This document shows, piece by piece, positions 18,914 through 39,398 of a stretch of DNA of 64,000 bases. The notes under the pieces were generated by a model. That model was given only the letters and a program-made list of their open reading frames with translations, was not told the origin of the DNA and did no database searches. Every line of letters begins with the position of its first letter. The first letter of the stretch is position 1. The DNA lies in contig DAOVAI010000001.1 of assembly GCA_030671085.1 (NCBI GenBank), positions 3,633-67,632 of the forward strand, in the 5' to 3' direction. The translations under genes and the position numbers were made by a program. Source of the stretch: Pseudomonadota bacterium. GTDB taxonomy: Bacteria > Desulfobacterota > Desulfobulbia > Desulfobulbales > Desulfocapsaceae.

Positions 18914-19213
18914 TTATTTGCCTGCCGTGACCTTGTCGGGAGCCTTGTTAACGTATTTAAAAAAGACCGGGAAGGCGACAAAGAAGGAAACGCAGATCAG
19001 GTATTCGATGCCCTTTATATGGGTGTAATAATCAACCAGGGTGTGCAGTGGTTTGATCATACCGATAGCGGTCATGTATTGGCTTGCCAGTGTACTTACA
19101 GACCAGTTTGCTTGGTAGAGGGCTCCTGTTAATGCTGCCGCTACCCAGAGACACATCATTGAACCTACTACCAAGATAACCCTGCTTGCTGTTTTTGAAG
19201 TCTTGTCTGCCAT
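18914..19213 (-). CDS. Small membrane protein: divergent peptide-family unit fused to an HmcD-like helix
   Basis: AAGGAG RBS before ATG 19213; VGSMMCLWVAAAL...YMTAIG followed by HTLVDYYTHIKGIEYLICVSFFVAFPVFFKYV. Confidence 0.75.
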   Translation of the reverse strand: MADKTSKTASRVILVVGSMMCLWVAAALTGALYQANWSVSTLASQYMTAIGMIKPLHTLVDYYTHIKGIEYLICVSFFVAFPVFFKYVNKAPDKVTAGK

Positions 19214-19250
19214 GCTCTTCTCCTTACCTGTTGTCATTATATAAATTGTA

Positions 19251-19445
19251 TCAGCCGATTAATGCGGTGAAGTAGTTTTTCAGTAAATTCAAAGGCCCAG
19301 AGCCGATCAAGGCGCTGGCGATACATGCTGCTCCCCAGAGACCAACGAGGGCAGCCATGACAATTCCTACACCGAGTACGAATGTAGAGGTTTCGTATCC
19401 AACTTCGGCCTGCTTTCTGGTTTTTGTTTGTGTGTCAGTAGTCAT
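19251..19445 (-). CDS. Small membrane peptide, GxWxxxC family
   Basis: VGLWGAACIASAL...GPLNLLKNYFTALIG; GGGGA RBS; paralogous to six other ORFs in the window. Confidence 0.85.
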   Translation of the reverse strand: MTTDTQTKTRKQAEVGYETSTFVLGVGIVMAALVGLWGAACIASALIGSGPLNLLKNYFTALIG

Positions 19446-19492
19446 GGTATTCCCCCGGTATCTCTTTTAAAGAGAGCTTTTTCTTTCACGTA

Positions 19493-19693
19493 TCAGTTTC
19501 CAGTGATAGCGGTGAACAATCCTTTAAAAACTTCCCCAGATCCGTTGTTGAGCATTACGCTGGCCATGCAGGTAACTGCCCATATTCCGACCATAATCGC
19601 TGCTGCTATTCCTACACCGAGTGTGAATTTGGTAGTTTCATCTATAACATCGACCTGATTATCTATGAGTTCTGTTTGTGTTTTGCCAGTCAT
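19493..19693 (-). CDS. Small membrane peptide, GxWxxxC family
   Basis: VGIWAVTCMASV...FKGLFTAITGN; AAGGAG RBS; sigma54 promoter upstream. Confidence 0.85.
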   Translation of the reverse strand: MTGKTQTELIDNQVDVIDETTKFTLGVGIAAAIMVGIWAVTCMASVMLNNGSGEVFKGLFTAITGN

Positions 19694-19750
19694 GACATTC
19701 TCCTTATCCTTCTGATTTTGTGATTTTTTTTGTTTTTCTGTGTTTTGTAT

Positions 19751-19766
19751 TGCATCAAGGATGCCA
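19751..19766 (-). promoter_or_regulatory. sigma54 -24/-12 promoter
   Basis: TGGCATCCTTGATGCA (GG-N10-GC). Confidence 0.8.
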
Positions 19767-20126: not shown

Positions 20127-21578
20127 TCAAGCAGTGGCTTTTCCGTTTCGAGGAATGATGATCGTACAGATATTTGATTGATCATCATTTCTGATTACAT
20201 CCAGGCTGCCGCCAAAGGTTTTCAAAAACTGTCTGCAGAAATTCATGTTGTGCCACGGCCTGTTGGGGTCCGCAGCACGAGGAGTCTTCTCAAATTTCCA
20301 AGGCGCTCCATTATCATATATGGATATCGCGATTTGAGCGTCGGTGGTGTTGTCATCATCGGTGAAGATTTCTATCTTTTTGTTTCCTGTCTTATCGTCT
20401 TGAAAACGACTTTTCACCGCTGTTCTGCTGCTTTGGATAGCTGACAGAATAACCAGCTGAAGATCACTGACATGATAGTTCAGTGAAATAGTGCTGTCTG
20501 CCATTGAGACGGAAAACTCAATACCATCGGTCTTAAGCGTTCCTCGTATCAGGCTCGATATGTGGGCAAAGATCTCTTCCAGGGTAAGGATTTTTGCCTC
20601 ACCGCTTTCACTGCCACTGGTAAAGGTAATCATATTAGTCAGGAGCTGTGACATCTTTTTTTCTTCTGCAAAGAGTTTTCGTAACAGGTCCTTGGTATCA
20701 TTGTCCATCTGTGAATCTTCGCTGAGGTCAAGAATCGCCTGAGTATAATTGATAACTCCATTGGAGCGATTGGTCAGTTCATGGCTCAGCCCACCTAGGA
20801 GATGGCCAATACTGCTGTACCTGTAAAGGCGGGAAAGTTCCTTTACCGGCCACTCGGGAACCATTTCTCCTGCATTTCGTGTCTTTTCTGGCAGTTGTTG
20901 TGATGCCAGGGTCTCAATCGTTGAATGGAGGGTGAAAAGTGAGATATCGCTCGATGATATTTTTGGAAAAAGAGTACGGCAATAGTGGATGATAGGAGTA
21001 GTGATATATTTATTCACCACCAGAAGCATGATGCTGACTGTTGCAACTACAAGAGCAAGCATCCCGACCAGTGCTCGTTGAAGCCCTAGAAGCTGTGTCT
21101 GGGTATATCTGGTAATGAGCTGATGAAAACCTGTGAGTTTCGTGTTGATAGAGCGTAATTGTTTTGAGAGTGAAGCCAGTTGAACTGCAGTCGGCGTGTC
21201 AGGACTGTTTTGGATACTGCGAAGGCTTACGGTCACATTAACCAGATCCACCTGGCTGATAAATGCGAGTTTAAATTCTTCTGGAATAAGGATGTCACCC
21301 AGGACCAAACTCATCTCTTTATCCAAACCCTGAATTTCTTTTATAAGTTCAGCAGTATTTAATGATTTTTGGCTGAGCAGTGTTTCATTGATGTGCTCTT
21401 TCATTCCAGTGAACTGAAAAAGAAGGGTCTGACTGGAATGAACCAGCTGTTCGCAATGACGATAGAGAAAATACTGTTTACCGGCAAGAAAGATGACGAC
21501 CATGAGCAGGCAGAGGGTAGAGCCTGTAAAGACATATAAAACACTTTTCAATGAAATTTTCGAAAAAATAGTCTTCAT
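20127..21578 (-). CDS. Membrane sensor with HisKA-like domain and degenerate HATPase
   Basis: Two TM segments; LGGLSHELTNRSNGVINY H-box; N-box altered (LSAIQSS), DNGAP present, F and G2 boxes not recognisable. Confidence 0.8.
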   Translation of the reverse strand: MKTIFSKISLKSVLYVFTGSTLCLLMVVIFLAGKQYFLYRHCEQLVHSSQTLLFQFTGMKEHINETLLSQKSLNTAELIKEIQGLDKEMSLVLGDILIPEEFKLAFISQVDLVNVTVSLRSIQNSPDTPTAVQLASLSKQLRSINTKLTGFHQLITRYTQTQLLGLQRALVGMLALVVATVSIMLLVVNKYITTPIIHYCRTLFPKISSSDISLFTLHSTIETLASQQLPEKTRNAGEMVPEWPVKELSRLYRYSSIGHLLGGLSHELTNRSNGVINYTQAILDLSEDSQMDNDTKDLLRKLFAEEKKMSQLLTNMITFTSGSESGEAKILTLEEIFAHISSLIRGTLKTDGIEFSVSMADSTISLNYHVSDLQLVILSAIQSSRTAVKSRFQDDKTGNKKIEIFTDDDNTTDAQIAISIYDNGAPWKFEKTPRAADPNRPWHNMNFCRQFLKTFGGSLDVIRNDDQSNICTIIIPRNGKATA

Positions 21579-21661: not shown

Positions 21662-22915
21662 CTATTTCTCACCCTTCCATTCGTAGACGATGGGCAGACG
21701 ATAAACGATAAAGCGATAAGTCAAGAAGTAGAGGGAGTAGAGAGTAACAGTAATCCATACTTCCTTCCAGTGTGGAATTTCCTGGTACAGCTGCCAGTTA
21801 TAACAAACCAGAGCCGTGTTGAGCCGATTCCAGACGATTCCTACTACAGTGATAAATGCTGCGAACCTGATCAGTCCAAGACGCTGATTCCTGACACCAA
21901 AGGCGAACATCAACATGGGCAGGACAACGGCGACACCGAGTTCAAGCATGTAGTAACTTCCCCATCCGGTAAGCAGGTACGACCATTCCTGATCATGGGC
22001 AACGGCTACTATTTTGATGATCAGGTAGGTGATCATGGCATATGAGGCACCTGTTGCAAGCCCCATGGTTATTTTGTCCAGATTGTCTTTGAATTCATCA
22101 TCACAGCGCCAGGCCATAAAATTCCTGATCAGTGTAGAAGATACGATGACCATGGAGAGTCCGGCAAAGATGGATGAACAGAAAAAATGAATCCATTGAA
22201 AGTTCACTGACAGCCAGAGGGGATGGACCTTGGACGGTGCGTAGGTGAACAAGGCACCCAAGGCTCCCTGGTGGAGTGTGGAAAGAATGATACCTGCGAT
22301 GGTGAGACCGAGGACCATTTTTCTGATGATACGTTTTCCTTTCAGCCAGCCAATCCATTCAAAAAAGGCAGGCAGCACTTCTGCAATCTGAACTGTCAGA
22401 TACGTTGCAACATGCCAGGCGACCAGGAAGAGAACCGCTGCCGGACCAAGTGATACAAACATCGGATAGGGGAGGCGCCATGGCATACCAAGATCCACTT
22501 CCAGGAAGAGGACAGCAAAGAAATAGCCCAGAAGGCCGTTCAGCAGTGCAAGACGTTCAATGGGGTGAAAATCTTTTCTGCCAAACAGTTCTACGGTGGT
22601 ACCCAGCATAAATCCTGATGCGGAAAGGGGAACCATTGCAAAAAGGCCGAATCCTAGAAAGAGGCCCCAGGGATAGTCATTGGAAGCATGGGTTACTGCT
22701 CCAAGGCCAAAGAGGTAACGCTGCATAATAAGCGGAACACCAATGGCAAAAATGCCGATCATCAGCCAGTTTACAGGATTTCTAAAAAACTGTTTTTTGT
22801 ATTCCGGCAGAGACAGACCCAACCACAGTTTTTCTTTGATGGTCCATTCTGTCCCGTCTTCTTTTAGATGATTGACAATTGGAATTTCAGGTCTTTCCTT
22901 TGAAAATATTCTCAT
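21662..22915 (-). CDS. NrfD-family membrane subunit (HybB/HmcC-like)
   Basis: GLGAVT...YPWGL, DLGMPWR, LSTLHQGALG, NRLN; about 10 TM helices. Confidence 0.9.
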   Translation of the reverse strand: MRIFSKERPEIPIVNHLKEDGTEWTIKEKLWLGLSLPEYKKQFFRNPVNWLMIGIFAIGVPLIMQRYLFGLGAVTHASNDYPWGLFLGFGLFAMVPLSASGFMLGTTVELFGRKDFHPIERLALLNGLLGYFFAVLFLEVDLGMPWRLPYPMFVSLGPAAVLFLVAWHVATYLTVQIAEVLPAFFEWIGWLKGKRIIRKMVLGLTIAGIILSTLHQGALGALFTYAPSKVHPLWLSVNFQWIHFFCSSIFAGLSMVIVSSTLIRNFMAWRCDDEFKDNLDKITMGLATGASYAMITYLIIKIVAVAHDQEWSYLLTGWGSYYMLELGVAVVLPMLMFAFGVRNQRLGLIRFAAFITVVGIVWNRLNTALVCYNWQLYQEIPHWKEVWITVTLYSLYFLTYRFIVYRLPIVYEWKGEK

Positions 22916-23853
22916 GCCTGCTCCTCCTTCTCATCATTTTCTTGTTCTTGTTTTTTGATATTTTCTTTTCTTGTAGCCAACAGGTGAAATCCTACAAAGA
23001 GGCCAGGCCAAATGGTGAGAACCATAGGAACCATAGCAAGAAAATCTTTTACCGAATTGAGGATTGGTTCTTTGGGTACATGGGTGTCAAAACCAACTTT
23101 GTCAAAGGAAACACTGGACAGGTACATCCAGGCAGTCCCCCCGACTTCTTTTTCTCCATAGATGTGGTCCACATATTTTCCAGGAGTGTTGCGAATACGC
23201 TGACGTCCCATGTCGATCAGGTCTGTACGCTTACCAAAGGTCAATGCCTCCTGGGGACATGCTTCTACACAGGCAGGTGGCTTTCCATCTTTCAGGCGGG
23301 TATCGTAACAGAAGATGCATTTCATAATGCGTGGGTTAAATGCACTGGAATACTTGAAAGTAGGAATATAAAATGGGCAGGCAATCATACAGGTCCTGCA
23401 ACCTACACAGACCTTGGAATTATAGATAACGGCCCCTTCCGGTGTCTTGGTATAGGCGTTGACAAAGCAGGAAGTCAAACAAGCTGGTTCCTGGCAGTGA
23501 TTACATTGGATCTTGCGGAATAGGGGATGGTCGAGTTCGGGAACATCATACTGATTCACTACTGTATAGGCTGTTTCATCGGTACGCCTTTTCTGGCCAT
23601 GATGGATTTCGTCAAAGACCGAGTAGTCAGTAAAGGGTTTCGCGGGTTCCGGGAGTCCCTGTTCTTTGTTACAGGCTGCTTCACAACTTCTGCATCCCAC
23701 ACAGCGGGTGAGGTCAACGAGAACGCCCATCCCTTCAGGGTATCCCTCGAAATCGTGCGCTGCTTGCGACTCTTTATTTTTAAGTACCGCAACTGCTGCA
23801 GTACCGGCAAGCCCGCCTTTTAAAAAATTTCTACGGCTTACAGTTTTTTTCAT
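22912..23853 (-). CDS. Tat-exported 4Fe-4S protein (HybA/HmcB-like) with C-terminal anchor
   Basis: SRRNFLK; CVGCRSCEAAC, CNHCQEPAC, CVGCRTCMIACP, CIFC...PACVEACP; IYGEKEVGGT. Confidence 0.92.
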   Translation of the reverse strand: MKKTVSRRNFLKGGLAGTAAVAVLKNKESQAAHDFEGYPEGMGVLVDLTRCVGCRSCEAACNKEQGLPEPAKPFTDYSVFDEIHHGQKRRTDETAYTVVNQYDVPELDHPLFRKIQCNHCQEPACLTSCFVNAYTKTPEGAVIYNSKVCVGCRTCMIACPFYIPTFKYSSAFNPRIMKCIFCYDTRLKDGKPPACVEACPQEALTFGKRTDLIDMGRQRIRNTPGKYVDHIYGEKEVGGTAWMYLSSVSFDKVGFDTHVPKEPILNSVKDFLAMVPMVLTIWPGLFVGFHLLATRKENIKKQEQENDEKEEQA

Positions 23854-23920: not shown

Positions 23921-24454
23921 TCAATGACCAGTGGCCGAATGTCCTTTTGCAGGACTGTGTTTAATATGGGTATCAAACAATTTCTCACCGGCCTCGGTCA
24001 TGGTGTGACAGTCCTGACAACCTGTTGGGCCACCAGTCTCCTGGTGACAACCGACACAGTTGAGATGGTAGGCACCTTTGAGTCCTGGTTTGTCAATATG
24101 ATACAGTTCTGGCGCTTCCAGAGTTTTGAGATATTTTTCATGAAAACGATCCGATTCATGACATTCGCCACAGCTGACCACATCGGCCTCACCGCTGGTG
24201 GTGTGACAACGTGCGCAGTTTTTATCAGTTACTTCTCCACCGGTGGTATGATGGTGGCACTGTTCACAGCTTGTGATTTCAACATGCAGGGCATGATCAA
24301 ATTCTACAGGGACATAGAGAGTTGCCAGGCTGTCAATGGTCACTGACTCCGGGGCATCATCTGCATCCATGGTCCAGACCTGGGCCGGAGTTGTCAATAC
24401 ACCTCCTATGGCCAGGGCTAAAGCTGTCCTTAATATTTTTTTCCTTGTTTGCAT
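23921..24454 (-). CDS. Cytochrome c3-like protein, 5 CxxCH
   Basis: Signal peptide; VEFDHALH; CEQCH, CARCH, CGECH, CVGCH, CQDCH; GLKGAYH. Confidence 0.92.
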   Translation of the reverse strand: MQTRKKILRTALALAIGGVLTTPAQVWTMDADDAPESVTIDSLATLYVPVEFDHALHVEITSCEQCHHHTTGGEVTDKNCARCHTTSGEADVVSCGECHESDRFHEKYLKTLEAPELYHIDKPGLKGAYHLNCVGCHQETGGPTGCQDCHTMTEAGEKLFDTHIKHSPAKGHSATGH

Positions 24455-24515: not shown

Positions 24516-26330
24516 TCATTCCTCCCTTTGTTTGTTCAATAGTTTTTTCTCAATGTTTTTTTCATTTATGTAACAATGATGCACAATATCCATCTCTTCA
24601 GCGTCAACGGTTTCATTGACCAGTAAGGCCTCAGCCAGTTTATGTAAGAACTTGTTGTTTTCGGAGAGCAGTTCTTTGGTTTCCCGGTAACATTGTTCAA
24701 TCAGCCTTTTGATTTCGTTGTCTATATTTTCAGCTGTTTTTTCGCTGTATGCCTTTGCTGCAGATCCTCCGCCTAAAAAACCACCCTGTTCCTGCATGTA
24801 GGCAACTGGTCCTATGACCTGACTCATGCCGAATTCACAGACTAAGCGGCTTGCTATTTCGGTTGCCGACAGGATGTCATTGGAAGCACCGGTTGTTTGA
24901 TGGCCAAAAACAATCTCTTCAGCTGCACGGCCGGCCATGAGGATCTTAATCCTGTTTACGAGGTATTCTCGAGAGTAGGTGTAGCGGTCATCTAAAGGAA
25001 GCTGCTGGGTGAGGCCCAATGCTCTTCCTCGAGGTATGATAGTAATCTTGTGGACAGGGTCGGTTTCCTCGAGAAGTGTTGCCGTGATGGCGTGCCCGGC
25101 TTCATGATAGGCTGTAACACGCCTGACTTTTTCATCAATAACCGCACTTTTTCGTTCCAGACCGAGGCTTATTTTGTCCTTGGCTTCTTCAAAATCTTGG
25201 AGATCAACAGCTGTTTTATTGTGACGAGCTGCCATCAAAGCTGCTTCATTTACCAGGTTGGCAATCTCAGCTCCGCTAAATCCTGGTATGGATCTGGCGA
25301 TCTCGGAAAGATTTACGCCGCTTGCCATCACAATTTTTTTGGCATGGACTTCCAGGATCTTTCTTCTGCCTTTGACATCAGGTAAGGTAATGGTCACTTG
25401 GCGGTCAAAACGGCCAGGGCGGAGAAGTGCAGGGTCAAGGATGTCTGGACGGTTTGTGGCAGCAATGATGATAACCGTCTCATTGGAATCAAACCCGTCC
25501 ATCTCCACTAGAAGGGCGTTCAGGGTCTGTTCGCGTTCATCAGAGCCTGTTGCATTGCCGCCGCTCCGTTTGCCGCCAATGGCATCAATCTCATCGATAA
25601 AAATGATACATGGTGAATTCTTTTTTGCTTCGGTAAAGAGTTCTCTTACCCGGGAAGCTCCGACACCCACGAACATTTCGACAAAATCTGAGCCGCCTAT
25701 GGAGTAGAAGGGAACCGATGCCTCTCCGGCAATTGCCTTGGCCAGGAGGGTCTTCCCGGTTCCTGGAGGGCCCTGCAGCAGAACACCTTTTGGGATGTAT
25801 CCACCGAGTTTGGAAAACTTTTCAGGGTGCTTTAAGGATTCGACAATTTCCACCAGCTCTGTTCTGGCCTCGCTGATGCCTGCAACATCTTCAAAGGTGA
25901 GGCCGGTGTCGCTGCTTGGCAAAAAAGAACTGCTTTTACTTTTACCAAAGCCTGACTTGCCTGCCTGCTGCATACGACTGAAGATGAGGTATCCGCCGAG
26001 AATGAGCAATACAGGAAGCATGGATTTAAGAAAACCCCCCATGCTCTCACTGTCTTTTTCAGCTGTGATCAGGACCGATTTTTCCTTCAGCAGCGGCATT
26101 ATTGAGGCAACATCAGGAATATAAGAGCTGAAAGATCTGTTGATACTGTCTTCGCCTTTAACGCTTCCGCCTCTTAAGTGGACAGTTTTAATTTCACCCT
26201 TTTGCAGCTGTTCCATAAAATCGGTATAAGATATTTCTTCAGGAGTTGTTTCATTGAGGTAAACGTTGTATCCGACAACTCCTAAGAAGGTGAGGAAGAG
26301 CACGAGTAACCCTGTTTGGATTTGGGACAT
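24516..26330 (-). CDS. ftsH: FtsH-family AAA+ zinc metalloprotease (paralog 1)
   Basis: Two TM segments; [49 protein letters not shown]. Confidence 0.95.
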
Positions 26331-26334
26331 GAGT

Positions 26335-27249
26335 TCACTCCGTAGCAGAGGTGGATGTTAAGTTTTTGTATGACCGTGATTTCTGGGCAAGAACTCCGGA
26401 CAGGAGGAGATTGAATACTGCCTCACTATCAGAAAGCATTGCTGAATTGCTTCGAAAACAAAATTCGTCAAGATAGAGTTGTAGGTGTTTGTTAGCCACT
26501 CCTCCTCGATGGATTTTATGCAACCAGAGTTCAAAACTCGCTATGATCTGTTCAATGCGAAAGGTTGTCGCGCTTTCGGATCCGGTAACAGTGATATAGC
26601 TGTTTCTGTCTATCCCCTGATAGGCAATGTTTTCAGGAACAACAAGAGATGACCCGGTGGCGACATGTTTGGCGAGAAAGTGGGTCACTGTATCGTTTGA
26701 CAAATCATTGAAGGGTTGCATTTTAATCCTTCCGGTGATCCCTGATGGCATGATAATTTCTGCAGCGGCAAGGATGTGTTCTTCCCCCCTGTTGTCGCCG
26801 CCCAATGATATGGTGCTGTCGCAGAGTTCAACGGTCCCGCGACATGGCTTGTTATCGGCAACTGCCATGGCCATACGGAGTTTTTGCAGCCAGGTCCAGG
26901 CAGTCTGATAGCTTGAGAGCTGGAGCAGGCGTTGTAGATCTTTGGCGCTGTGACCACCGTCTGTGGATGCGAGCCACCAAATAGAGACAAGCCACTCAGA
27001 TAAAGGTTTTTTGGTCCCATGCATAATGGTATTGGTGGTGATTGAGGTGGGATGGCCGCAATGGCTGCAGATGATTGTTTTTGCAGGTTGCTGCTCCTCA
27101 TTGACCCAGTTGCAGTATGGGCACTCAAAGCCTCGGGGCCATCGTTTATAAAAGAGAAAATGCTGGCTGATGGTCTCGCTATGAAACTCTTTTCGGAATT
27201 CCTCTACCGTTTGCGGAAATCGATTTCTGAGAGTGGGAGTTGCCTGCAT
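26335..27249 (-). CDS. IS1595-family transposase-derived protein, catalytic Asp motifs altered
   Basis: RWPRGFECPYC...CSHC zinc ribbon, SYQTAWTWLQKLRMAM, KHLQLYLDEFCFRSN; VELCDSTI and SLVVPENIAY replace the usual VEVDETY and TD-G-x-x-x-Y motifs. Confidence 0.85.
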   Translation of the reverse strand: MQATPTLRNRFPQTVEEFRKEFHSETISQHFLFYKRWPRGFECPYCNWVNEEQQPAKTIICSHCGHPTSITTNTIMHGTKKPLSEWLVSIWWLASTDGGHSAKDLQRLLQLSSYQTAWTWLQKLRMAMAVADNKPCRGTVELCDSTISLGGDNRGEEHILAAAEIIMPSGITGRIKMQPFNDLSNDTVTHFLAKHVATGSSLVVPENIAYQGIDRNSYITVTGSESATTFRIEQIIASFELWLHKIHRGGVANKHLQLYLDEFCFRSNSAMLSDSEAVFNLLLSGVLAQKSRSYKNLTSTSATE

Positions 27250-27295
27250 GTGTGCTCCTCAAATTGTTGAACTTATCCACTTTAATTTGAGTTAT

Positions 27296-27311
27296 TGCAC
27301 ATATGGTGCCA
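27296..27311 (-). promoter_or_regulatory. sigma54 -24/-12 promoter
   Basis: TGGCACCATATGTGCA (GG-N10-GC), 46 nt upstream of ATG 27249. Confidence 0.85.
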
Positions 27312-27524
27312 TAGAGGCGAAGTCTTTGGTCTTCTTTGTAATGAATTGAAATTACAAGATAATTTCGAAATGTAGCATCGCCGGGGGAGGGGTTCCTGGA
27401 AAGGGGGCGTGTTAGAATTTAAGGTAGTACTTATTTATTTTTGATTAAATGTTCTGCATAAACAGGATGTTATACTGTTTCTTCTTGCTGGAAGGGAGTG
27501 TGGGAAAAAACCAACACAAGTGTG

Positions 27525-27566
27525 GTTTCTGCTACACTTGTGTGGCGACACAAGTGTAGCAGAAAC
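27525..27566. promoter_or_regulatory. Perfect palindrome with 19-bp arms, candidate enhancer (UAS)
   Basis: GTTTCTGCTACACTTGTGT-GGCG-ACACAAGTGTAGCAGAAAC, about 215-255 bp upstream of the sigma54 site. Confidence 0.65.
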
Positions 27567-27572
27567 GAGAGG

Positions 27573-29384
27573 CTAGGTGTCAAGACTACTGAGATCGATT
27601 TTCAATTCTTTTATTTTTCTGTACAGAGTTGATCTGTCCATGCCGAGCAACCTGGAAGCCTTGGCCTTATTCCCTCCTGTCTTTTTTAAGGCGGCAAGAA
27701 TTTTTCCCTCCACGGATTGATACTGGGTGGAATCGGTAAACGAAGTAGAAATCGGTGGTTCCTGGGATGGTTCCCTTTGTAAGGGGGAAACAGAGGGAGG
27801 CCTAAACGAGTCTGGATGTTGAATTTCCTGAGGAAGCTGTTCAGTGGCAATGGTTGAACCGTGACAGAGCACACAGGAACGTTCGATTACATGTTCAAGT
27901 TCCCTGATATTGCCAGGCCATTGATACTTGACAAGCAGTGCCATGGCCTGATCTGAGATGCCGGTAATGGGTTTTCCCATTTTCTTAGAAAACTGCTGGA
28001 TAAACTTGTTCGTCAACAGTTCTACATCTCCGGTACGTTCTCGAAGCGAAGGCATTATGATATCAATGACTCTGAGGCGAAAATAAAGGTCTTCACGGAA
28101 GTTTCCCTGCTGCACTTTTTCACGTAAATTCACATTGGTTGCGGCAATGACCCGGACATCTACCTGAATAGGAGTATCTCTTCCCACAGGGTAAAATGTT
28201 TTTTCCTGAAGAAAACGAAGGAGTCGGAGCTGCATCATGGACGAGATGTCACCTATTTCGTCAAGAAACAAGGTGCCGCCGTCTGCCTGGAGAATGCGTC
28301 CCATTCTGTCCTGGTCGGCTCCAGTAAAAGAACCTTTTTTATGGCCAAAAAGTTCGCTCTCAAGCAGGTTTTCAGGGATCGCGGTACAGTCTACTTTTAC
28401 CAGTGGACGGTTTCTTCTATGACTTTCCAGATGGAGGGCCTCAGTTGCCAGCTCTTTACCGGTTCCACTTTCACCGGTAATGAGAACAGCGGAATCAACC
28501 TTTCCAACGTGTTCAATCATGGTGTATACCGTTTGCATCGCAGCACTGGAACCAATCATGCGATGGAAAGAACTGCGCTGATCCGAGTACTTCTGCTCCT
28601 TGGTTGTCATGTCTCGAAGGACAATGACAACACCATGGAATCCGCCTCTACCGTCTTCCAGCGGCGAAATACAGATGCTGAATACCTGTTGTTTCCCGGA
28701 AGTAGTGAGGTACTCAATCCTGTGTTCTTTGATTTCCATGCCGGAGCGTAAAACCTTTTCAGCATCTTCTTTGAAAAAACAGGTATTGCTGTCACTGCAG
28801 GTCAGGGCAAGATTGGCCCCTTCTTTAAAGTCCGGGTTGACTGTTCCCAAAAGGGACTTGGCCGCCTGGTTCATCTTGACGATATTCAGGTCCTCATCAA
28901 CTGTCATGATGGAGTCGGAAACACTTCTGAACAGTGTGTCCAGGTAGCTGCGATATTTTTCTTTTTCTTCTTCGGCAAGACGTTTTTCCTGTTGCAGTCG
29001 ATGCTGCTGCAGGGCAAGGCGAGTGGTCTTCAGAAGCACTTCTTTTTCAACCGGTTTCTGGATGTAGTCAAAGGCACCAAAACGTACTGCATCAGAGGCT
29101 GTGTCAACATTTGGATAGCCGGTTACCATGATGACAGGGCAGGAGATGCCAAGTTCACGTATCCGTTTCAAGAGATCAATGCCGGAACGGCCGCCGAGAA
29201 CAATATCACTGATGATCAACTCAAAAGATCTGCTTGTAAGTTCGCTGACAGCCTCTTCGAAATTAGAGGCCATGATGACCGGCCCATATCCTTCACGTTT
29301 GAGAAAAATTTGAAAGGTGTGGCGCAGACTTTCCTCATCGTCGACTACCAGAATGGAGGTTTCTGTTGTTGATTGGTCTTTCAT
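27573..29384 (-). CDS. sigma54-dependent response regulator REC-PAS-AAA+-HTH (paralog 1)
   Basis: ILVVDDE, LIISD; GESGTGKE, ESELFGH, GSFTGA, LFLDEIG, WPGNIREL; Fis-type HTH. Confidence 0.96.
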   Translation of the reverse strand: MKDQSTTETSILVVDDEESLRHTFQIFLKREGYGPVIMASNFEEAVSELTSRSFELIISDIVLGGRSGIDLLKRIRELGISCPVIMVTGYPNVDTASDAVRFGAFDYIQKPVEKEVLLKTTRLALQQHRLQQEKRLAEEEKEKYRSYLDTLFRSVSDSIMTVDEDLNIVKMNQAAKSLLGTVNPDFKEGANLALTCSDSNTCFFKEDAEKVLRSGMEIKEHRIEYLTTSGKQQVFSICISPLEDGRGGFHGVVIVLRDMTTKEQKYSDQRSSFHRMIGSSAAMQTVYTMIEHVGKVDSAVLITGESGTGKELATEALHLESHRRNRPLVKVDCTAIPENLLESELFGHKKGSFTGADQDRMGRILQADGGTLFLDEIGDISSMMQLRLLRFLQEKTFYPVGRDTPIQVDVRVIAATNVNLREKVQQGNFREDLYFRLRVIDIIMPSLRERTGDVELLTNKFIQQFSKKMGKPITGISDQAMALLVKYQWPGNIRELEHVIERSCVLCHGSTIATEQLPQEIQHPDSFRPPSVSPLQREPSQEPPISTSFTDSTQYQSVEGKILAALKKTGGNKAKASRLLGMDRSTLYRKIKELKIDLSSLDT

Positions 29385-33317: not shown

Positions 33318-34076
33318 ATGAACATTAAGGACTTGGAAAAGGAAGAAAATGAGGGCATTGATACACTGCCTTCAGAAGAACGTCGTAAATTCCTGAAAAT
33401 GGGACTGGCGGTCACTGGTGTTTTCCTTGGAGGCTCTGTCTTATCACTGACTGCTGTTAAAAGTGCCAGAGCTGTAGATTCCGTAATACCTGCTGAAGGA
33501 CAATATCCTTACAGCAAGCATTACGGAATGATAATGAGACAAAATAACTGTGTCGACTGTGAAAAATGTCTTGATGCCTGCAGGGAGACAAATCATGTCC
33601 CTGTTGGCCACGGTGCCTGGAGAACGACTATTCAGGAGCGTTTGACCACTGTTGATGATGTGGAGCAAAGAGAATTCAGACCGATACTCTGCAACCATTG
33701 CAATCGTCCTCCCTGTGTTCGAGTCTGTCCCACCAAGGCTACCTATAAAGATCCGGAAACCGGTATCGTTGTCATGGACTATAAAAAATGTATTGGCTGT
33801 AAGACCTGCATGGCAGCCTGTCCCTATAATGCCAGATATTTCAATCATGACAAATATGCCATCGATAAGTGTAATTTCTGTATAGATACAAGGCTTGCCC
33901 AGGGGAAAAAAGATACTGCCTGTGTTGCAGTCTGTCCTGCAAAAGTACGAATTTTTGGTGATATAAAAGATAAAAGCACAGAAATCTATCAACTGCTGCA
34001 TGAGCCTGACAATAAAATCTGGGTGTTGCGTCCGGAAACAGGTGCCTTGCCTAATGTTTTTTACATGAATGCATAG
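33318..34076 (+). CDS. Tat-exported 4Fe-4S protein (NrfC/PsrB/DsrO-like)
   Basis: ERRKFLK; CVDCEKCLDAC, CNHCNRPPCVRVCP, CIGCKTCMAACPY, KCNFC...ACVAVCP. Confidence 0.93.
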   Translation: MNIKDLEKEENEGIDTLPSEERRKFLKMGLAVTGVFLGGSVLSLTAVKSARAVDSVIPAEGQYPYSKHYGMIMRQNNCVDCEKCLDACRETNHVPVGHGAWRTTIQERLTTVDDVEQREFRPILCNHCNRPPCVRVCPTKATYKDPETGIVVMDYKKCIGCKTCMAACPYNARYFNHDKYAIDKCNFCIDTRLAQGKKDTACVAVCPAKVRIFGDIKDKSTEIYQLLHEPDNKIWVLRPETGALPNVFYMNA

Positions 34077-34181
34077 GTCACCCGGTCCTGTGATTACAAG
34101 CTGTCTGTAAAACGCAGTTACTGCTGCATCAGACTGCAGCTCACTCACCGTCTACCACTCAGATTTTAGGAGATTATAAAA

Positions 34182-34847
34182 ATGAATAAGAATTTCGTTA
34201 GCGCTGTTGGGGTCACCATGCTTGCAGGGACATTTCTGCTTGTCAGTCATGCAACAGCTACAGAAGAGTACGATGTAAAGGCATTTGGCCCGAAAAGCCC
34301 AATTGTCTGGCAAAAACCGGTTAAAGTTGTCTTTGAACACAGAGTCCATACAGATGACATTGGTCTTGAGTGCGGTGCCTGCCATGGAGAACTTTTTGCC
34401 ATGCAGCGTGGGGTTGCTCCTAGAACAGGAAAGCTGAGCATGGCTTCCCTTGCCGAAGGTCAATTTTGCGGCGCCTGTCATGATGGAGAGACTGCTTTTG
34501 CCTCTGATACGAACTGCATTGCCTGTCACGTTGTTCCGGAAGATCCAATAGTGTGGACGAAACCAGTCAAAGCAGTTGTTTTTTACCATCAGGTACACAC
34601 CGAGGAATACGGTCTGGATTGCGACTCCTGTCATAACGATGCATTTGCCATGAAAAAAGGTGCAGCAGAGAATTCATCCAACTTCACAATGAAAGCCCTT
34701 TATGACGGGCAATACTGCGGTAAGTGTCATGACGGCGAAACTGCTTTTGCCTCAAACACTCTCTGCAACACATGTCATATTGGAGTGAAAGGGTATAACC
34801 GGATGACTGGTGCAGATCCTCATGCTGACGAACAGAGTGGTCATTGA
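34182..34847 (+). CDS. c7-type multiheme cytochrome, 6 CxxCH
   Basis: Signal peptide; two triheme repeats (VVFxHxxH, CxxCH, M..G.[FY]CGxCHDG..AF, CxxCH). Confidence 0.93.
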   Translation: MNKNFVSAVGVTMLAGTFLLVSHATATEEYDVKAFGPKSPIVWQKPVKVVFEHRVHTDDIGLECGACHGELFAMQRGVAPRTGKLSMASLAEGQFCGACHDGETAFASDTNCIACHVVPEDPIVWTKPVKAVVFYHQVHTEEYGLDCDSCHNDAFAMKKGAAENSSNFTMKALYDGQYCGKCHDGETAFASNTLCNTCHIGVKGYNRMTGADPHADEQSGH

Positions 34848-34948
34848 TCGACAAAGAGGTTTTATTCTCGTTCATGTGATGATCCACGTAGAATTATCTG
34901 AAACGCACAGGCCAAGAGCCTGATAAAAAAATTGTGCAGGAGATTAAA

Positions 34949-36142
34949 ATGGCGAACAATTCAATAACAACTATATTTGCCCAGACGCAGGATACTCGTC
35001 TGGCTACACCCGGGATGAACCGGGCAACGATTTTCTTTCTGATTACCATTGTGGCTGGTCTCAGCTGCGGTGTGGCTTCCTTTTTCTTTGGTCATGAGGC
35101 CATCTACAACAATACTCGCGAAGTACCCTGGGGGATGTTGATTTCTACTTATGCCTTCTGGGCCATTACTTCTACCGGTCTTTGTATCTATGCAGCTATT
35201 TCCCATCTTTTTGGCGGCACCAGAATGGCTATTGTCAGTAACAGAATGGTCTGGATGTCCATTGTCTGCATCCTTGCAGCCTTTGCTACCATCGGTGTGG
35301 AGATCGCAAGCCCTCACAGGATGATCATTTACAATATCCTTTCTCCCAACCCAACTTCTAATATCTGGTGGATGGGAACTCTTTACGGTCTTGCTGTAGG
35401 TTGCATGATTGTGGAATTTTTTGGCATTATCACCGGGCTCGCCCGTATTGCAGTTATTCTTGGAACAGCTGGTGCCGTTGCTGAAGTTCTTGCCAATAGC
35501 TGTCTCGGCGGCGTGTTTGCAACATTGCCTGGAAGACCATACTGGTACGGTGGACAGCTTCCTATCTATTTCCTTACCGCTGCCTTTCTCTCTGGAGCGG
35601 CTGCTACCGTACTCTTTAACCATCTTGCCTATAAAATTCGCGGTGAGGAGATGAGCGAAGCTGTCAAACTGGGAGTAAAAAGTGCTGGTAAGGCCATGAC
35701 CCTGGTTCTTGTCCTCTACAGTGTCGCAACATTCTGGCGTCTGATCATGTACTATGTTGGTGGCGCTGAACTTGGACGCATTGCAGCTGGTGCGCTGATT
35801 ACCGGGCCGCTCTCTGTCAACTTCTGGGTCCTTGAAGTATGCGTTGGGCTGATTATTCCCCTCTTGCTTATTATCCTTTCTCGTCTTGAAAATGTTGGGA
35901 TGATGGCCTTAGCAGGACTCCTTATCCTCGTTGGACAGTTTGTTGCGCGCTATGACCTTATTGCAGCCGGTCTGCTTGTCCCTGCATCTTTAGGCTGGGA
36001 CAATGTCCCTACCTATTTAGACTACGTACCGTCTATCTTTGAGTTTGGTGTAATAATCGGAAGCATAAGTGTTGTTGCTTTTGGTTTTCTTATGGGAGAA
36101 AGAGTTTTTGGTAAAGTCTTTGATCAGAAAGAACATCACTGA
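34949..36142 (+). CDS. NrfD/PsrC-family membrane subunit
   Basis: TREVPWGMLISTY, SNIWWMGTLY, RPYWYG, PIYFL, RYD. Confidence 0.92.
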   Translation: MANNSITTIFAQTQDTRLATPGMNRATIFFLITIVAGLSCGVASFFFGHEAIYNNTREVPWGMLISTYAFWAITSTGLCIYAAISHLFGGTRMAIVSNRMVWMSIVCILAAFATIGVEIASPHRMIIYNILSPNPTSNIWWMGTLYGLAVGCMIVEFFGIITGLARIAVILGTAGAVAEVLANSCLGGVFATLPGRPYWYGGQLPIYFLTAAFLSGAAATVLFNHLAYKIRGEEMSEAVKLGVKSAGKAMTLVLVLYSVATFWRLIMYYVGGAELGRIAAGALITGPLSVNFWVLEVCVGLIIPLLLIILSRLENVGMMALAGLLILVGQFVARYDLIAAGLLVPASLGWDNVPTYLDYVPSIFEFGVIIGSISVVAFGFLMGERVFGKVFDQKEHH

Positions 36143-36148
36143 TTTAGC

Positions 36149-36195
36149 AAACAAACAAAAAAGGTCGCTCTTGGAGCGGCCTTTTTTGTTTGTTT
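36149..36195. terminator. Bidirectional intrinsic terminator
   Basis: AAACAAACAAAAAAGGTCGCTC-TTG-GAGCGGCCTTTTTTGTTTGTTT. Confidence 0.85.
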
Positions 36196-36239
36196 CTCTT
36201 GAGTGTCTACACCATATTTATAACCAATAGTTGGTAACT

Positions 36240-37388
36240 ATGTCAGATACAATAGGTGATAGTGAAAAGCAGTTGGCCCTGCAGGAGTGTTCGAGTCTGC
36301 AGGATTCTTGTCCGGCTGGAGGAGGGAATGAACTTTTTCAGGCCATCCAGGATCCGGTCCTGGTCGTCACTCCCAATGGAATCATTATCGATGCCAATAA
36401 TGCTGCCCTGAACGCTGCCCAAAAGAGTCGATCTGAAATCATCGGTAAAGGGATCTGTAAAATTATCCATGGAGGCAGTTCGCCACATCTTAAATGTCCT
36501 CTGGAAGAGTTTCTGCTCACCTGTTCTCCGCGTGTTGAAGAAAGCACACTCCCCGGCCTCTCCGGTGAATATCTGCTCACCATTACACCAGTTAAAGATC
36601 AAGATGAAACCGTGCGCAAGATTCTTCTTGTGGCAAGGGAGCTGACCAGTGATGAGATGCGAAAAGCAGATTCCATACGAACTGCCCAGATGGCTGCCAT
36701 TGGCGAACTCGCTGCAGGTGTCGCCCATGAGGTCAATAATCCTATTACCGGTATCATAAACTTTGCCCAGTTGCTTCTTGACGACAGCGAAAAAGATTCT
36801 TTACAGGAGGAGCTTTTAGGGCGGATTGTTGACGAAGGAGAAAGGATTGCCTCAATTATAAAAAATCTCCTTTCCTTTGCCCGTGAAAGTGAAAATGATA
36901 ACGAACCGATAGAAATGGTCCAGGTCATACAAGACAGCCTTTCGCTGGTTGAGCATCAGTTTAAAAAAGACGGTATTAAAATAAGTACGGAATATTCTGC
37001 AGAATCTTGTCGAATAAATGGAAATTTCAGACAGTTACAGCAAGTCATCCTCAATTTGCTGAGTAATGCCCGTTTTGCCTTGAACGAACGCTACCCCAAT
37101 GCTTCACCAGACAAAAAAATAGAAATTACCTGTTATCCTTTTATTAGAGAGGGAGGGCAGCCGGTGACTCAAGTCTCAATCAAAGATACGGGTACTGGTA
37201 TTCCCCAAGGCATTCTTAACCGCTTATTTGATCCATTTTTCACAACCAAGCCCTCTGGAAAGGGAACCGGGCTTGGTCTGAGTATCAGTTATGGCATTAT
37301 TCAGGATCACGGCGGTGTTATTAAGGTTGACTCAATAATGCATCAATATACCAAGATGATAGTCGAAATACCTTCATCGGGTGCGTAA
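36240..37388 (+). CDS. PAS histidine kinase, paralog of the C-terminal half of 30717-32717
   Basis: FQAIQDPVLVV...CPLEE PAS; AGVAHEVNNP; NLLSNARFALN; GTGLGL. Confidence 0.95.
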   Translation: MSDTIGDSEKQLALQECSSLQDSCPAGGGNELFQAIQDPVLVVTPNGIIIDANNAALNAAQKSRSEIIGKGICKIIHGGSSPHLKCPLEEFLLTCSPRVEESTLPGLSGEYLLTITPVKDQDETVRKILLVARELTSDEMRKADSIRTAQMAAIGELAAGVAHEVNNPITGIINFAQLLLDDSEKDSLQEELLGRIVDEGERIASIIKNLLSFARESENDNEPIEMVQVIQDSLSLVEHQFKKDGIKISTEYSAESCRINGNFRQLQQVILNLLSNARFALNERYPNASPDKKIEITCYPFIREGGQPVTQVSIKDTGTGIPQGILNRLFDPFFTTKPSGKGTGLGLSISYGIIQDHGGVIKVDSIMHQYTKMIVEIPSSGA

Positions 37389-37389
37389 A

Positions 37390-39189
37390 ATGGATAATCA
37401 AGTCATTCAGGAAAAAGATACCCACATTCTCATCGTTGATGATGAGGCAAGTATTCGGCTTACTTTTGAGATGTTCCTGGCCCGTGAAGGATATGGAGCA
37501 ATAACTACTGCCTCTACTCTAGATGAAGCTCTCGTTGCCATCAAAGAACATGACTTTGATCTCATAATCAGTGATATAGTCCTGGAAGGAGAGAAGGGGA
37601 CTGATCTTCTCTGCAAGATCAGGGAGGCAGGAATTGAATGCCCCGTGGTCATGGTTACCGGATTCCCAAATCTTGACACCGCTGCTGAGGCAGTACGTTA
37701 TGGTGCCTTCGATTACATCTCCAAACCAGTAAACAAAGAGACCTTGCTTAAGTTCGTAAGGCAGGCCTTGAAGCATTGGAGACTTGAAAACGAGAAAAAA
37801 CAGTTATTGCAGGAAAATGAAAAATTTAAACGGTACCTGCAAGCCATTTTCAGTTCGGTAAGGGACGCAATTATCACAATAGATAATGAAATGAATATTG
37901 TGCAGCTCAATGAGACTGCTAAACAATGGCTCCTTTATTCTGACTCTGATAAACAGGCCAGCCTGGAATCGTATCAAAGTGAAATGGGTAAGGCATGTCT
38001 GCAAGACGCCCAACAGGTATTATCCAGCAGGCAAGAGGTAAGAGAACACCAGGTTGAATGCAGAAAATCTGACGGCAACATACGCATTATAAGTCTCAAC
38101 GCAGCACCTTTAGAAGATGGATTTGATGAATTCAGTGGTGTCGTCATAGTGGCTAGAGATATTACCCTGCCTGAACCTGCCACTGGTAAGAATTCCAGAA
38201 ACAAGTTCCACGGCTATGTCGGTTCCAGTCAGGCAATGCAGAATGTCTATAACTTAATTGAAAATGTTGGAAAAGTTGATACAGCAGTCCTTGTAACGGG
38301 TCAGTCCGGCACCGGAAAGGAACTTGCCGCTGAAGCATTACATGCAGAAAGTGGGAGGCGCGACGGGCCTCTGGTCAAAGTAGACTGTGCTGCAATGCCT
38401 GAAGAGTTATTGGAAAGTGAACTCTTTGGTCACATAAAAGGAGCGTTCACCGGAGCAGATAAAGATCGCCCGGGCAGACTGATTCAAGCAGACAAGGGTA
38501 CACTCTTTCTTGATGAAATTGGAGACATCTCACCTCGTATGCAGCTGCGTTTACTACGGTTTCTTCAGGAGAAAACTTTTACTCCGGTTGGTCAGGATAC
38601 CCATGTACAAGTGGATGTCAGAATTGTTGCTGCCACCAATGTGAATTTGACAGAAAAAGTCAGAGAGGGGGGTTTTCGTGAAGACCTCTACTACCGATTA
38701 AAAGTTGTAGAGATAAAATTACCCCCCTTATGCGATAGAAAAGGGGGCATTCCTATTCTAGTGCACCACTTCCTTTCTCTCTTTCGTGAGAAACTGAAAC
38801 GCAATATCCATGGTATTTCCGACCAGGCCATGGAAGCACTCTCACGTTACTCTTGGCCTGGTAATGTTCGTGAGTTACGCCATGTTATTGAGAGAGCTTG
38901 TGTGTTATGCGAAGGCCCAACTATTTCTTTAGAGCATTTCCCCGATGAAATCCAAAAACCTGTAGTGCATATTTCTGAACCGGCTGAAAACAAAGCACAC
39001 CTTGCAAGTGTTACTACACTCCCCCCCTATATCAGCGAGGAAGATGAGATTGTAGAGGTTCTCAAACGAGCGCGCGGCAATAAAACTAAGGCTGCACGCA
39101 TGCTCAACATTGATCGTTCCACTCTCTATCGTAAGATGCAGCGCTTTGGCATGGCCAGCGATATCGCAAAAACTCCTCACAAACAATAG
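37390..39189 (+). CDS. sigma54-dependent response regulator REC-PAS-AAA+-HTH (paralog 2)
   Basis: ILIVDDE, LIISD, GQSGTGKE, GAFTGA, WPGNVREL, RSTLYRK. Confidence 0.96.
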   Translation: MDNQVIQEKDTHILIVDDEASIRLTFEMFLAREGYGAITTASTLDEALVAIKEHDFDLIISDIVLEGEKGTDLLCKIREAGIECPVVMVTGFPNLDTAAEAVRYGAFDYISKPVNKETLLKFVRQALKHWRLENEKKQLLQENEKFKRYLQAIFSSVRDAIITIDNEMNIVQLNETAKQWLLYSDSDKQASLESYQSEMGKACLQDAQQVLSSRQEVREHQVECRKSDGNIRIISLNAAPLEDGFDEFSGVVIVARDITLPEPATGKNSRNKFHGYVGSSQAMQNVYNLIENVGKVDTAVLVTGQSGTGKELAAEALHAESGRRDGPLVKVDCAAMPEELLESELFGHIKGAFTGADKDRPGRLIQADKGTLFLDEIGDISPRMQLRLLRFLQEKTFTPVGQDTHVQVDVRIVAATNVNLTEKVREGGFREDLYYRLKVVEIKLPPLCDRKGGIPILVHHFLSLFREKLKRNIHGISDQAMEALSRYSWPGNVRELRHVIERACVLCEGPTISLEHFPDEIQKPVVHISEPAENKAHLASVTTLPPYISEEDEIVEVLKRARGNKTKAARMLNIDRSTLYRKMQRFGMASDIAKTPHKQ

Positions 39190-39262
39190 TAATTATGTTG
39201 CAAAGTTGTTGCACGCAACAACTTTGCAACATAATTAGACTCAACGCAACACATTCGCAACA
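39190..39262. promoter_or_regulatory. Perfect palindrome with 23-bp arms plus phased GCAACA repeats, candidate UAS
   Basis: TAATTATGTTGCAAAGTTGTTGC-AC-GCAACAACTTTGCAACATAATTA (39190-39237); GCAACA at 39215, 39226, 39246, 39257. Confidence 0.7.
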
Positions 39263-39382
39263 GAACCCACCCTTCCTCTTTTATCTCCCTTTGCGTTTTT
39301 TATCTGAAATTCTGTTATAAAAAGACATAAAACCAATTAGTTAGGTGGTGAGCACGTTTTTCGTAAAGGTTTTTCGAGTAAT

Positions 39383-39398
39383 TGGCACGCGGAGTGCA
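39383..39398 (+). promoter_or_regulatory. sigma54 -24/-12 promoter
   Basis: TGGCACGCGGAGTGCA. Confidence 0.85.

Follow-up and report, generated by a model that had tools for sequence, protein, structure and literature searches.

A 304-aa reading frame resembling an IS1595-family transposase heads an ftsH-cytochrome operon in the window, the 64,000-nt stretch of Desulfocapsaceae DNA analysed here. This raises the question whether the gene belongs to a mobile insertion sequence (IS) or has become a host gene and, if so, what its product does there. The initial annotation had taken it for an exapted DNA-binding or regulatory protein, possibly a substrate of FtsH, and not for a mobile element. 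The features of the locus are as follows:

26335..27249, minus strand: IS1595-family transposase, almost certainly domesticated, 304 aa (profile matches, alignment, fold)
24516..26330, minus strand: FtsH paralogue, starting 4 nt past the stop of the transposase gene
23921..24454, minus strand: five-haem c3-like cytochrome
22912..23853, minus strand: HmcB-like Fe-S protein (401.9 bits, below the cut-off of 420)
21662..22915, minus strand: HmcC/NrfD-like membrane subunit (367.9 bits, below the cut-off of 550)
27573..29384, minus strand: sigma54-dependent activator (receiver-PAS-AAA+-HTH_8)
27255..27260, minus strand: ribosome-binding site GAGGAG, read from the sequence
27296..27311, minus strand: sigma54 -24/-12 promoter TGGCACCATATGTGCA, retained at orthologous loci whether or not they have the gene
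27271..27282, minus strand: candidate operator AAGTGGATAAGT at about +4..+15, its first 9 nt being the reverse complement of the terminal inverted repeat (TIR) core TATCCACTT
27514..27557, no strand assigned: three ACAC(A/T)(A/T)GTGT palindromes, with no further exact copy anywhere in the genome

A transposase without catalytic residues or paired ends

The frame (27249..26335, minus strand) is free of internal stops. Its product scored 100.2 bits against NCBIfam NF033547 (IS1595 transposase, cut-off 75), 46.3 bits against Pfam DDE_Tnp_IS1595 (PF12762, cut-off 27) and 17.1 bits, below the cut-off of 25.4, against Zn_ribbon_IS1595. In PMC8101967, the family is defined by the zinc ribbon combined with a DDE_Tnp_IS1595 domain. 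The window protein carries a C4 zinc ribbon (C43, C46, C61 and C64, with all four cysteines in 66/66 orthologues), a helix-turn-helix (HTH) with SYQTAW at residues 102-131, an RNase H/integrase-fold core with C143, P205 and E233 at the catalytic positions, the stretch KHLQLYLDEFCFR and a C-terminal EFCFR helix. The intact frame with zinc ribbon, HTH and KHLQLYLDEFCFR that had been annotated was confirmed. Likewise, alignment to mobile relatives bore out the reported replacement of the VEVDETY and TDG motifs: VELCDSTI aligns with VEVDETY, VVPENIAY with TDGWxGY, and KHLQLYLDEFCFR with LDEYTFRFNRR. Residues kept in the orthologues are the four zinc-ribbon cysteines, R36/W37, T74/H77/K80, Y114-W120, R174 and E262/F263/F265. 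An AlphaFold2 model built on a 65-sequence alignment was confident (pLDDT 88.9), and its residues 137-273 matched integrase/transposase cores (best Z 13.1, rmsd 2.7 Å, 122 aligned residues), a placement at fold level without residue-level superposition; the best Foldseek match was the ISCth4 transposase. Homodimer prediction gave a score of 0.34 against a mark of 0.42. A protein 94% identical to that of the window is encoded in a record titled Desulfocapsa sp., and databases label the relatives 'IS1595 family transposase'.

In nine close mobile ISs the D of VEVD, the D of TDG and the H of GVH were invariant, leaving the triad intact in 9/9. The third catalytic position of the closest mobile relatives is His (GVHRxASLLKRW), where the window protein has E233; we take their D-D-H-K pattern to be that of the ISSod11 group. 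An intact triad would have spoken against domestication. By sequence alignment, none of the 66 orthologues has the full D-D-H set, the first D being present in 13, the second in none and the His in one. Other losses of the fixed clade are the KR that follows the His, both arginines of NRR and the loop KRGRG. A register-shifted catalytic site (D144, E206) was ruled out, with D144 found in only 3/66 orthologues.

Paired TIRs were not found at the window locus, where the best inverted-repeat score was 8; scores were 8-9 at six fixed-clade loci versus 17-25 around nine of ten close ISs. As to the 8-bp target-site duplication of the family, repeats of 8 bp were visible in the flanks of three mobile copies (L085, L089, L090), and the window locus has no ends to anchor such a duplication. 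The annotated lack of terminal repeats therefore held in that no pair of ends is left, and failed in that one TIR core is conserved upstream of the gene. Multiple near-identical copies with TIRs were likewise not seen: within its own genome (a MAG, 81% complete) the window gene was the single IS1595-family match. With no triad, no paired TIRs, a single copy and the same locus in 66 genomes, the view that this is not a mobile element was upheld. The gene descends from an IS1595 element yet is not one, and it almost certainly represents a real domestication. Like IS1595 ISs, its product has the zinc ribbon, a DDE_Tnp_IS1595 domain, an RNase H/integrase fold, the HTH with SYQTAW and a TIR core word; unlike them, it lacks a catalytic triad and paired TIRs, exists as a single fixed orthologous copy, is transcribed from a predicted host sigma54 promoter and is coupled to host genes. 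A caution for annotation is that genes under the name 'IS1595 family transposase' belong to the host in these genomes.

The fixed copies formed one clade nested among mobile ISs (SH-aLRT 100 with 51 rows; 99 with 22 rows under a mixture model), with the ISs at L339, L341 and L342 as sisters (SH-aLRT 91, not starred). In L164, the deepest branch with DNA context and from a record titled Desulfobacterales, the second D and the His are still present; one further protein (P0020) was labelled by its dead motifs only. For the syntenic orthologues, dN/dS was well below 1, as the annotation had proposed to check (median 0.175, range 0.04-0.32; Nei-Gojobori, 62 non-independent pairs with dS of 0.02-1.5). 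It was higher than that of ftsH in most of seven pairs compared, and residues 1-135 evolved more slowly than the dead core in 54/62 pairs. Purifying selection acts on mobile transposases as well. As the window gene has neither catalysis nor ends, however, selection on it must act through the host.

A fixed place in a sigma54 operon

Three hundred genomes of the order were searched and 79 matched at 1e-25; the locus review covered the top-scoring matches. Forty fetched loci comprised 29 syntenic ones, one orthologue without ftsH (L061) and ten ordinary ISs. Altogether, 66 genomes from two families of the Desulfobulbales (f1 and f17) have the gene immediately ahead of ftsH. Absence from this locus in close relatives would have argued against domestication; 16 of 24 same-genus genomes carry an orthologue of 57-74% identity, followed directly by ftsH in 16/16, and the second family has it too. 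In four of the eight same-genus genomes without the gene, a search with the FtsH of this operon at 1e-190 gave no match. The usual gene order is kinase, PAS protein, sigma54 activator, the gene, ftsH, cytochrome, hmcB-like and hmcC-like gene. The 4-nt gap between stop codon and ftsH ATG was confirmed in the sequence, and at 55/66 loci the two genes are separated by at most 4 nt or overlap. The neighbouring sigma54-dependent activator (27573..29384) likely activates the ftsH-cytochrome operon.

The proposed role as an FtsH substrate found no support: the C-termini are unconserved and often end within the ftsH ribosome-binding site, and an FtsH degron was rejected for lack of a conserved C-terminal tail among the orthologues. 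Moreover, the gene persists at two loci without adjacent ftsH. At L177 it adjoins the cytochrome gene and the GGATAGG core is kept; L061 retains promoter and activator but has lost the operon, and both its HTH and its motif have decayed. FtsH is thus not required for retention of the gene. The genome of the window (G000) has a second FtsH match elsewhere, which makes the operon copy an extra paralogue.

The downstream genes resemble HmcB and HmcC and include a small c3-type cytochrome, as in the Hmc/Nhc/Tmc complexes of Desulfovibrio (PMC4215793); they differ in scoring below the HmcB and HmcC cut-offs, in the five-haem cytochrome and in the linkage to an FtsH paralogue. The operon ends with a 483-aa protein (20127-21578, minus strand) that gave a weak HisKA match and no HATPase_c match and is possibly a pseudo-kinase; f1 clades of greater divergence lack it at this position. 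Within 18914-19766 on the minus strand, a second sigma54-like promoter (19751-19766) precedes three small hydrophobic ORFs of 66, 64 and 107 aa, the last with DYYTHIKGIEY. A second module at 33318-39398 on the plus strand encodes a ferredoxin-like protein, a c7-type cytochrome, an NrfD-like protein, a kinase and a sigma54 activator, names that were read from the sequence, with c7 alone profile-scanned; it has a sigma54-like promoter at about 39383-39398.

In 29 genomes the gene tree tracked those of ftsH (rho 0.94, no strong conflict) and hmcC (rho 0.90). Comparison with RpoB gave 18/26 shared splits, one strong conflict and a patristic rho of 0.35. Since the values for ftsH and hmcC against RpoB were similar (0.43 and 0.46), the low correlation is common to the gene and its neighbours, and the operon may have been transferred as a whole long ago.

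Gene-less versions of this operon, with the same promoter, occur in other families and here and there among f1/f17 genomes. In other families the promoter is mostly followed by two small membrane-protein genes and then ftsH, and otherwise by ftsH directly. Small hydrophobic genes similar to those at 18914-19766 sit between main promoter and ftsH in most of these operons. A combined FtsH, HmcB and HmcC tree was built from 43 gene-bearing loci of our selection and 24 gene-less loci, the latter drawn from 40 after exclusion of 13 without a usable ftsH-linked operon and of L307 and L311, with L303 proving gene-bearing. Gene presence required five changes on this tree, corresponding to at least four losses from the operon if the gene was gained once. 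No gene relics were found in seven short gene-less leaders.

A TIR core at the promoter and its predicted recognition residue

The annotated GAGGAG ribosome-binding site and the sigma54 box ending 46 nt before the ATG were both found in the sequence as described. At about +4..+12 of this promoter lies AAGTGGATA, whose reverse complement TATCCACTT forms the TIR core in the nearest mobile ISs; among the sister ISs, L339 and L341 have TATCCACTT and L342 has TATCCACGT. Across the gene-bearing loci, conservation of the leader is highest at AAGTGGATA(A/G)GT, 13 nt past the -12 box at about +4..+15. Its distance to the -12 box is fixed; that to the ATG ranges from 55 to 164 nt. Of 64 gene-bearing promoters, 36 have the exact 9-mer, eight have it with up to two mismatches, nine retain no more than a core of the GGATA(A/G)G type and the motif is lost from 11. 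No genome has more than one sigma54 box followed by the motif, and this locus accounts for 32 of the 33 matches in 301 genomes. L164 has the same motif placed 6 nt further downstream. The chance of an exact TIR match was about 0.002 for the 7-mer GTGGATA and about 0.0001 for the 9-mer, values to be read with the motif having been noticed before the test. At L039 the site forms a perfect 10-bp palindrome over -11..+15, of which the left half is degenerate at other loci. The conserved (A/G)GT at +13..+15 does not fit the run of G at the outer side of the TIR. In orientation the motif resembles a right end, and some IS left ends begin AAGTGGGTA; it may be either a literal end remnant or a re-evolved site.

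Two other assignments of the motif were rejected. It is not the site of the neighbouring activator, the likely sites of which are another palindrome far upstream; the three ACAC(A/T)(A/T)GTGT copies are likely its enhancer sites. Nor is it a general sigma54 feature, as 0/16 other intergenic sigma54-like promoters of the genome have it within two mismatches and it is absent from gene-less promoters. A wider exact-match regulon was not found in ten genomes, where the 12-mer had five matches outside this promoter versus nine control matches.

The motif, or its GGATA(A/G)G core, was present in 29/43 gene-bearing and 0/23 gene-less promoters on the combined tree; one of the 24 gene-less loci had no promoter in view, and five of the promoter calls were less canonical. 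The 0/23 includes two gene losses nested in motif-bearing lineages. Among five independent pairs, about three were concordant, none was opposite and two were uninformative (p = 0.25). At L301, a gene-less locus among motif-bearing relatives, AAGT is still in place and the remainder has decayed. As AA at +4/+5 is also frequent in gene-less promoters, only GTGGATA discriminates. Before the ftsH of the gene-less locus L302 (G261) we noted a perfect 20-bp palindrome, GAATGAATACGTATTCATTC, at approximately the operator position of gene-bearing loci, possibly a replacement operator. The 11 of 64 gene-bearing promoters without the motif belong to the genera g21, g24 and g28 and to some of g23 and g27. 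Against a role of the motif as target, the gene remains under selection in this clade (dN/dS of 0.17 and 0.32 for two pairs). The clade of g21, g24 and g28 has long branches and two of the gene losses, which fit a relaxed or shifted function.

How the protein might read this word was approached through 85 mobile ISs with a resolved TIR (loci L067-L090, L166-L233 and L339-L417), for which 33 cores were entered by hand and the others by pattern. HTH residue 115 was the best predictor of core positions 4-6, with a mutual information of 1.19 bits compared to 0.64 for the next residue. Q115 went with CCA in 36/39 ISs and non-Q residues in 1/46; E went with CCC in 4/9, K with TCA in 7/9, and V or T with TTA in 10/10. 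The association of residue 115 with the TIR core across independent pairs gave a median p of 0.016. For SY-X-TAW, across a wide IS1595 subgroup, the code thus reads TATCCA for Q, often TATCCC for E, TATTCA for K, TATTTA for V/T and TATGCA for N/H. The fixed clade keeps Q115 in 64/66, and the HTH of the tamed protein is therefore predicted to read the word on its own promoter. Covariation of residue and site inside one genus was mixed: one Q-to-E lineage has the site TATCCC(C/T)TT, matching the code, with TATCCC the commonest core among E-bearing ISs; a second such lineage still has TATCCA, and three further kinds of site change are seen in lineages with Q.

A proposed autorepressor and its alternatives

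The annotated exaptation as a DNA-binding regulator thus gains support, with the TIR-core motif on the gene's own promoter as candidate target. As this motif lies on the predicted transcription start, the protein is likely the operon's repressor; repression as the effect of binding is judged from the position of the site. From the sequence evidence we consider it reasonably probable that the tamed transposase is an autorepressor that binds a TIR-derived operator on its own sigma54 promoter. An IS would have inserted in sense direction between an existing sigma54 promoter and ftsH and then lost catalysis and its right end, while the HTH with Q115 would still read TATCCAC. The protein would bind about +4..+15, a degenerate half-site over -11..-2 perhaps serving as the second contact, and hinder open-complex formation or escape of the sigma54 polymerase. 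Such negative feedback could cap operon output once the upstream kinase and activator switch the operon on, and the gene may be kept because an end-binding module on the start site gives feedback under the activator and its triple enhancer.

Several alternatives have to be weighed against this. That the gene is an ordinary or decaying IS which chanced to sit before ftsH might be argued from the passed IS1595 family cut-off, the database names and its repeated loss from the operon; given the missing triad and ends, the single copy at one locus in 66 genomes, the intact frames and dN/dS far below 1, we regard this as highly improbable. A different proposal accepts domestication and places the selected function elsewhere, for example as a protein partner of activator, kinase or FtsH or as a broad DNA or RNA binder, with the motif read by another factor such as DnaA or CsrA. 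The DnaA box is TTATCCACA, and the CsrA motif is GGA on the 5' UTR. The window site matches the DnaA box in 8/9 positions, the box is perfect there in L004 and L032 and also, at the left half-site, in L039, one clade reads the CsrA-like word CAGGATAGG, the gene stays where the motif is lost, and its stop lies close to or overlaps the ftsH start at most loci. However, none of the 43 gene-bearing leaders of the TIR-match test has a perfect DnaA box, and the conserved bases follow the TIR rather than DnaA, a general factor whose reading would sit poorly with the absence of the motif from 23/23 gene-less promoters. Anchoring of the motif to the promoter and not to the ribosome-binding site, and retention of the gene without ftsH in L177 and L061, also speak against the proposal. 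Overall, we consider this proposal unlikely.

The protein might also bind the site without being a simple autorepressor, acting instead as a sensor-regulator whose binding is conditional or as an architectural factor. For example, redox or metal state might release it by way of the zinc ribbon and of Cys136 and Cys264, both newly fixed, or it might bend the DNA and so aid enhancer looping. C136 occurs in 63/66 and C264 in 61/66 members of the fixed clade (both in 58/66), where the nine mobile relatives have L and mostly T, respectively, and the two may possibly form a redox or metal site. The operon moreover encodes an electron-transfer complex, and the entire dead core is retained under selection. 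Both cysteines may, however, simply be buried, and a position downstream of the start is typical of repressor sites. We give this possibility little weight and retain autorepression as the preferred reading. Rrf2 is a repressor of hmc and may be a functional analogue of the window protein, not a homologue.

Taming of this kind is familiar from plants and animals, and eukaryotic transcription factors derived from transposases include FHY3/FAR1, CENP-B and SETMAR. They likewise lost catalysis and TIRs, kept the end-binding domain and have targets related to the ancestral TIR; the window protein, which judged by its sequence likely works like them, differs in being bacterial, in lying inside a sigma54 operon and in apparently having one target, its own promoter. 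The route from transposase to transcription factor is discussed in bioRxiv 10.64898/2026.08.24.746577, and domesticated Merlin copies are proposed in PMC8101967. The closest bacterial parallel in our comparison is TldR, described in PMC10705468 as a nuclease-dead TnpB kept as a promoter-binding repressor. Both are inactivated transposon-encoded proteins that bacteria have kept; TldR is TnpB-derived and RNA-guided, whereas the window protein stems from a DDE transposase, would read a TIR-derived site through its HTH and is a putative repressor. No description of the gene or operon, nor of this kind of taming in bacteria, was found in the open-access literature searched.

On balance we lean towards a model in which a bacterial DDE transposase and its own TIR core were co-opted together, in one insertion, as a ready-made repressor-operator pair of a sigma54 respiratory operon in two families, with a single HTH residue setting the word in mobile and tamed forms. 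For an IS family that has received little study, the work provides a TIR recognition code based on one residue. The gene occurs in cultured strains (among the record titles are Desulforhopalus singaporensis, Desulfofustis glycolicus and Desulfoprunum benzoelyticum) and the site spans just 12 bp, so that the proposal is directly testable. Conversion of transposases into transcription factors is a major theme in eukaryotes, and the confirmed bacterial case in the sources available, TldR, derives from the accessory nuclease TnpB. If true, a DDE transposase acting as a regulator with a TIR-traceable target would show how a whole feedback switch can come from an IS in a single step.
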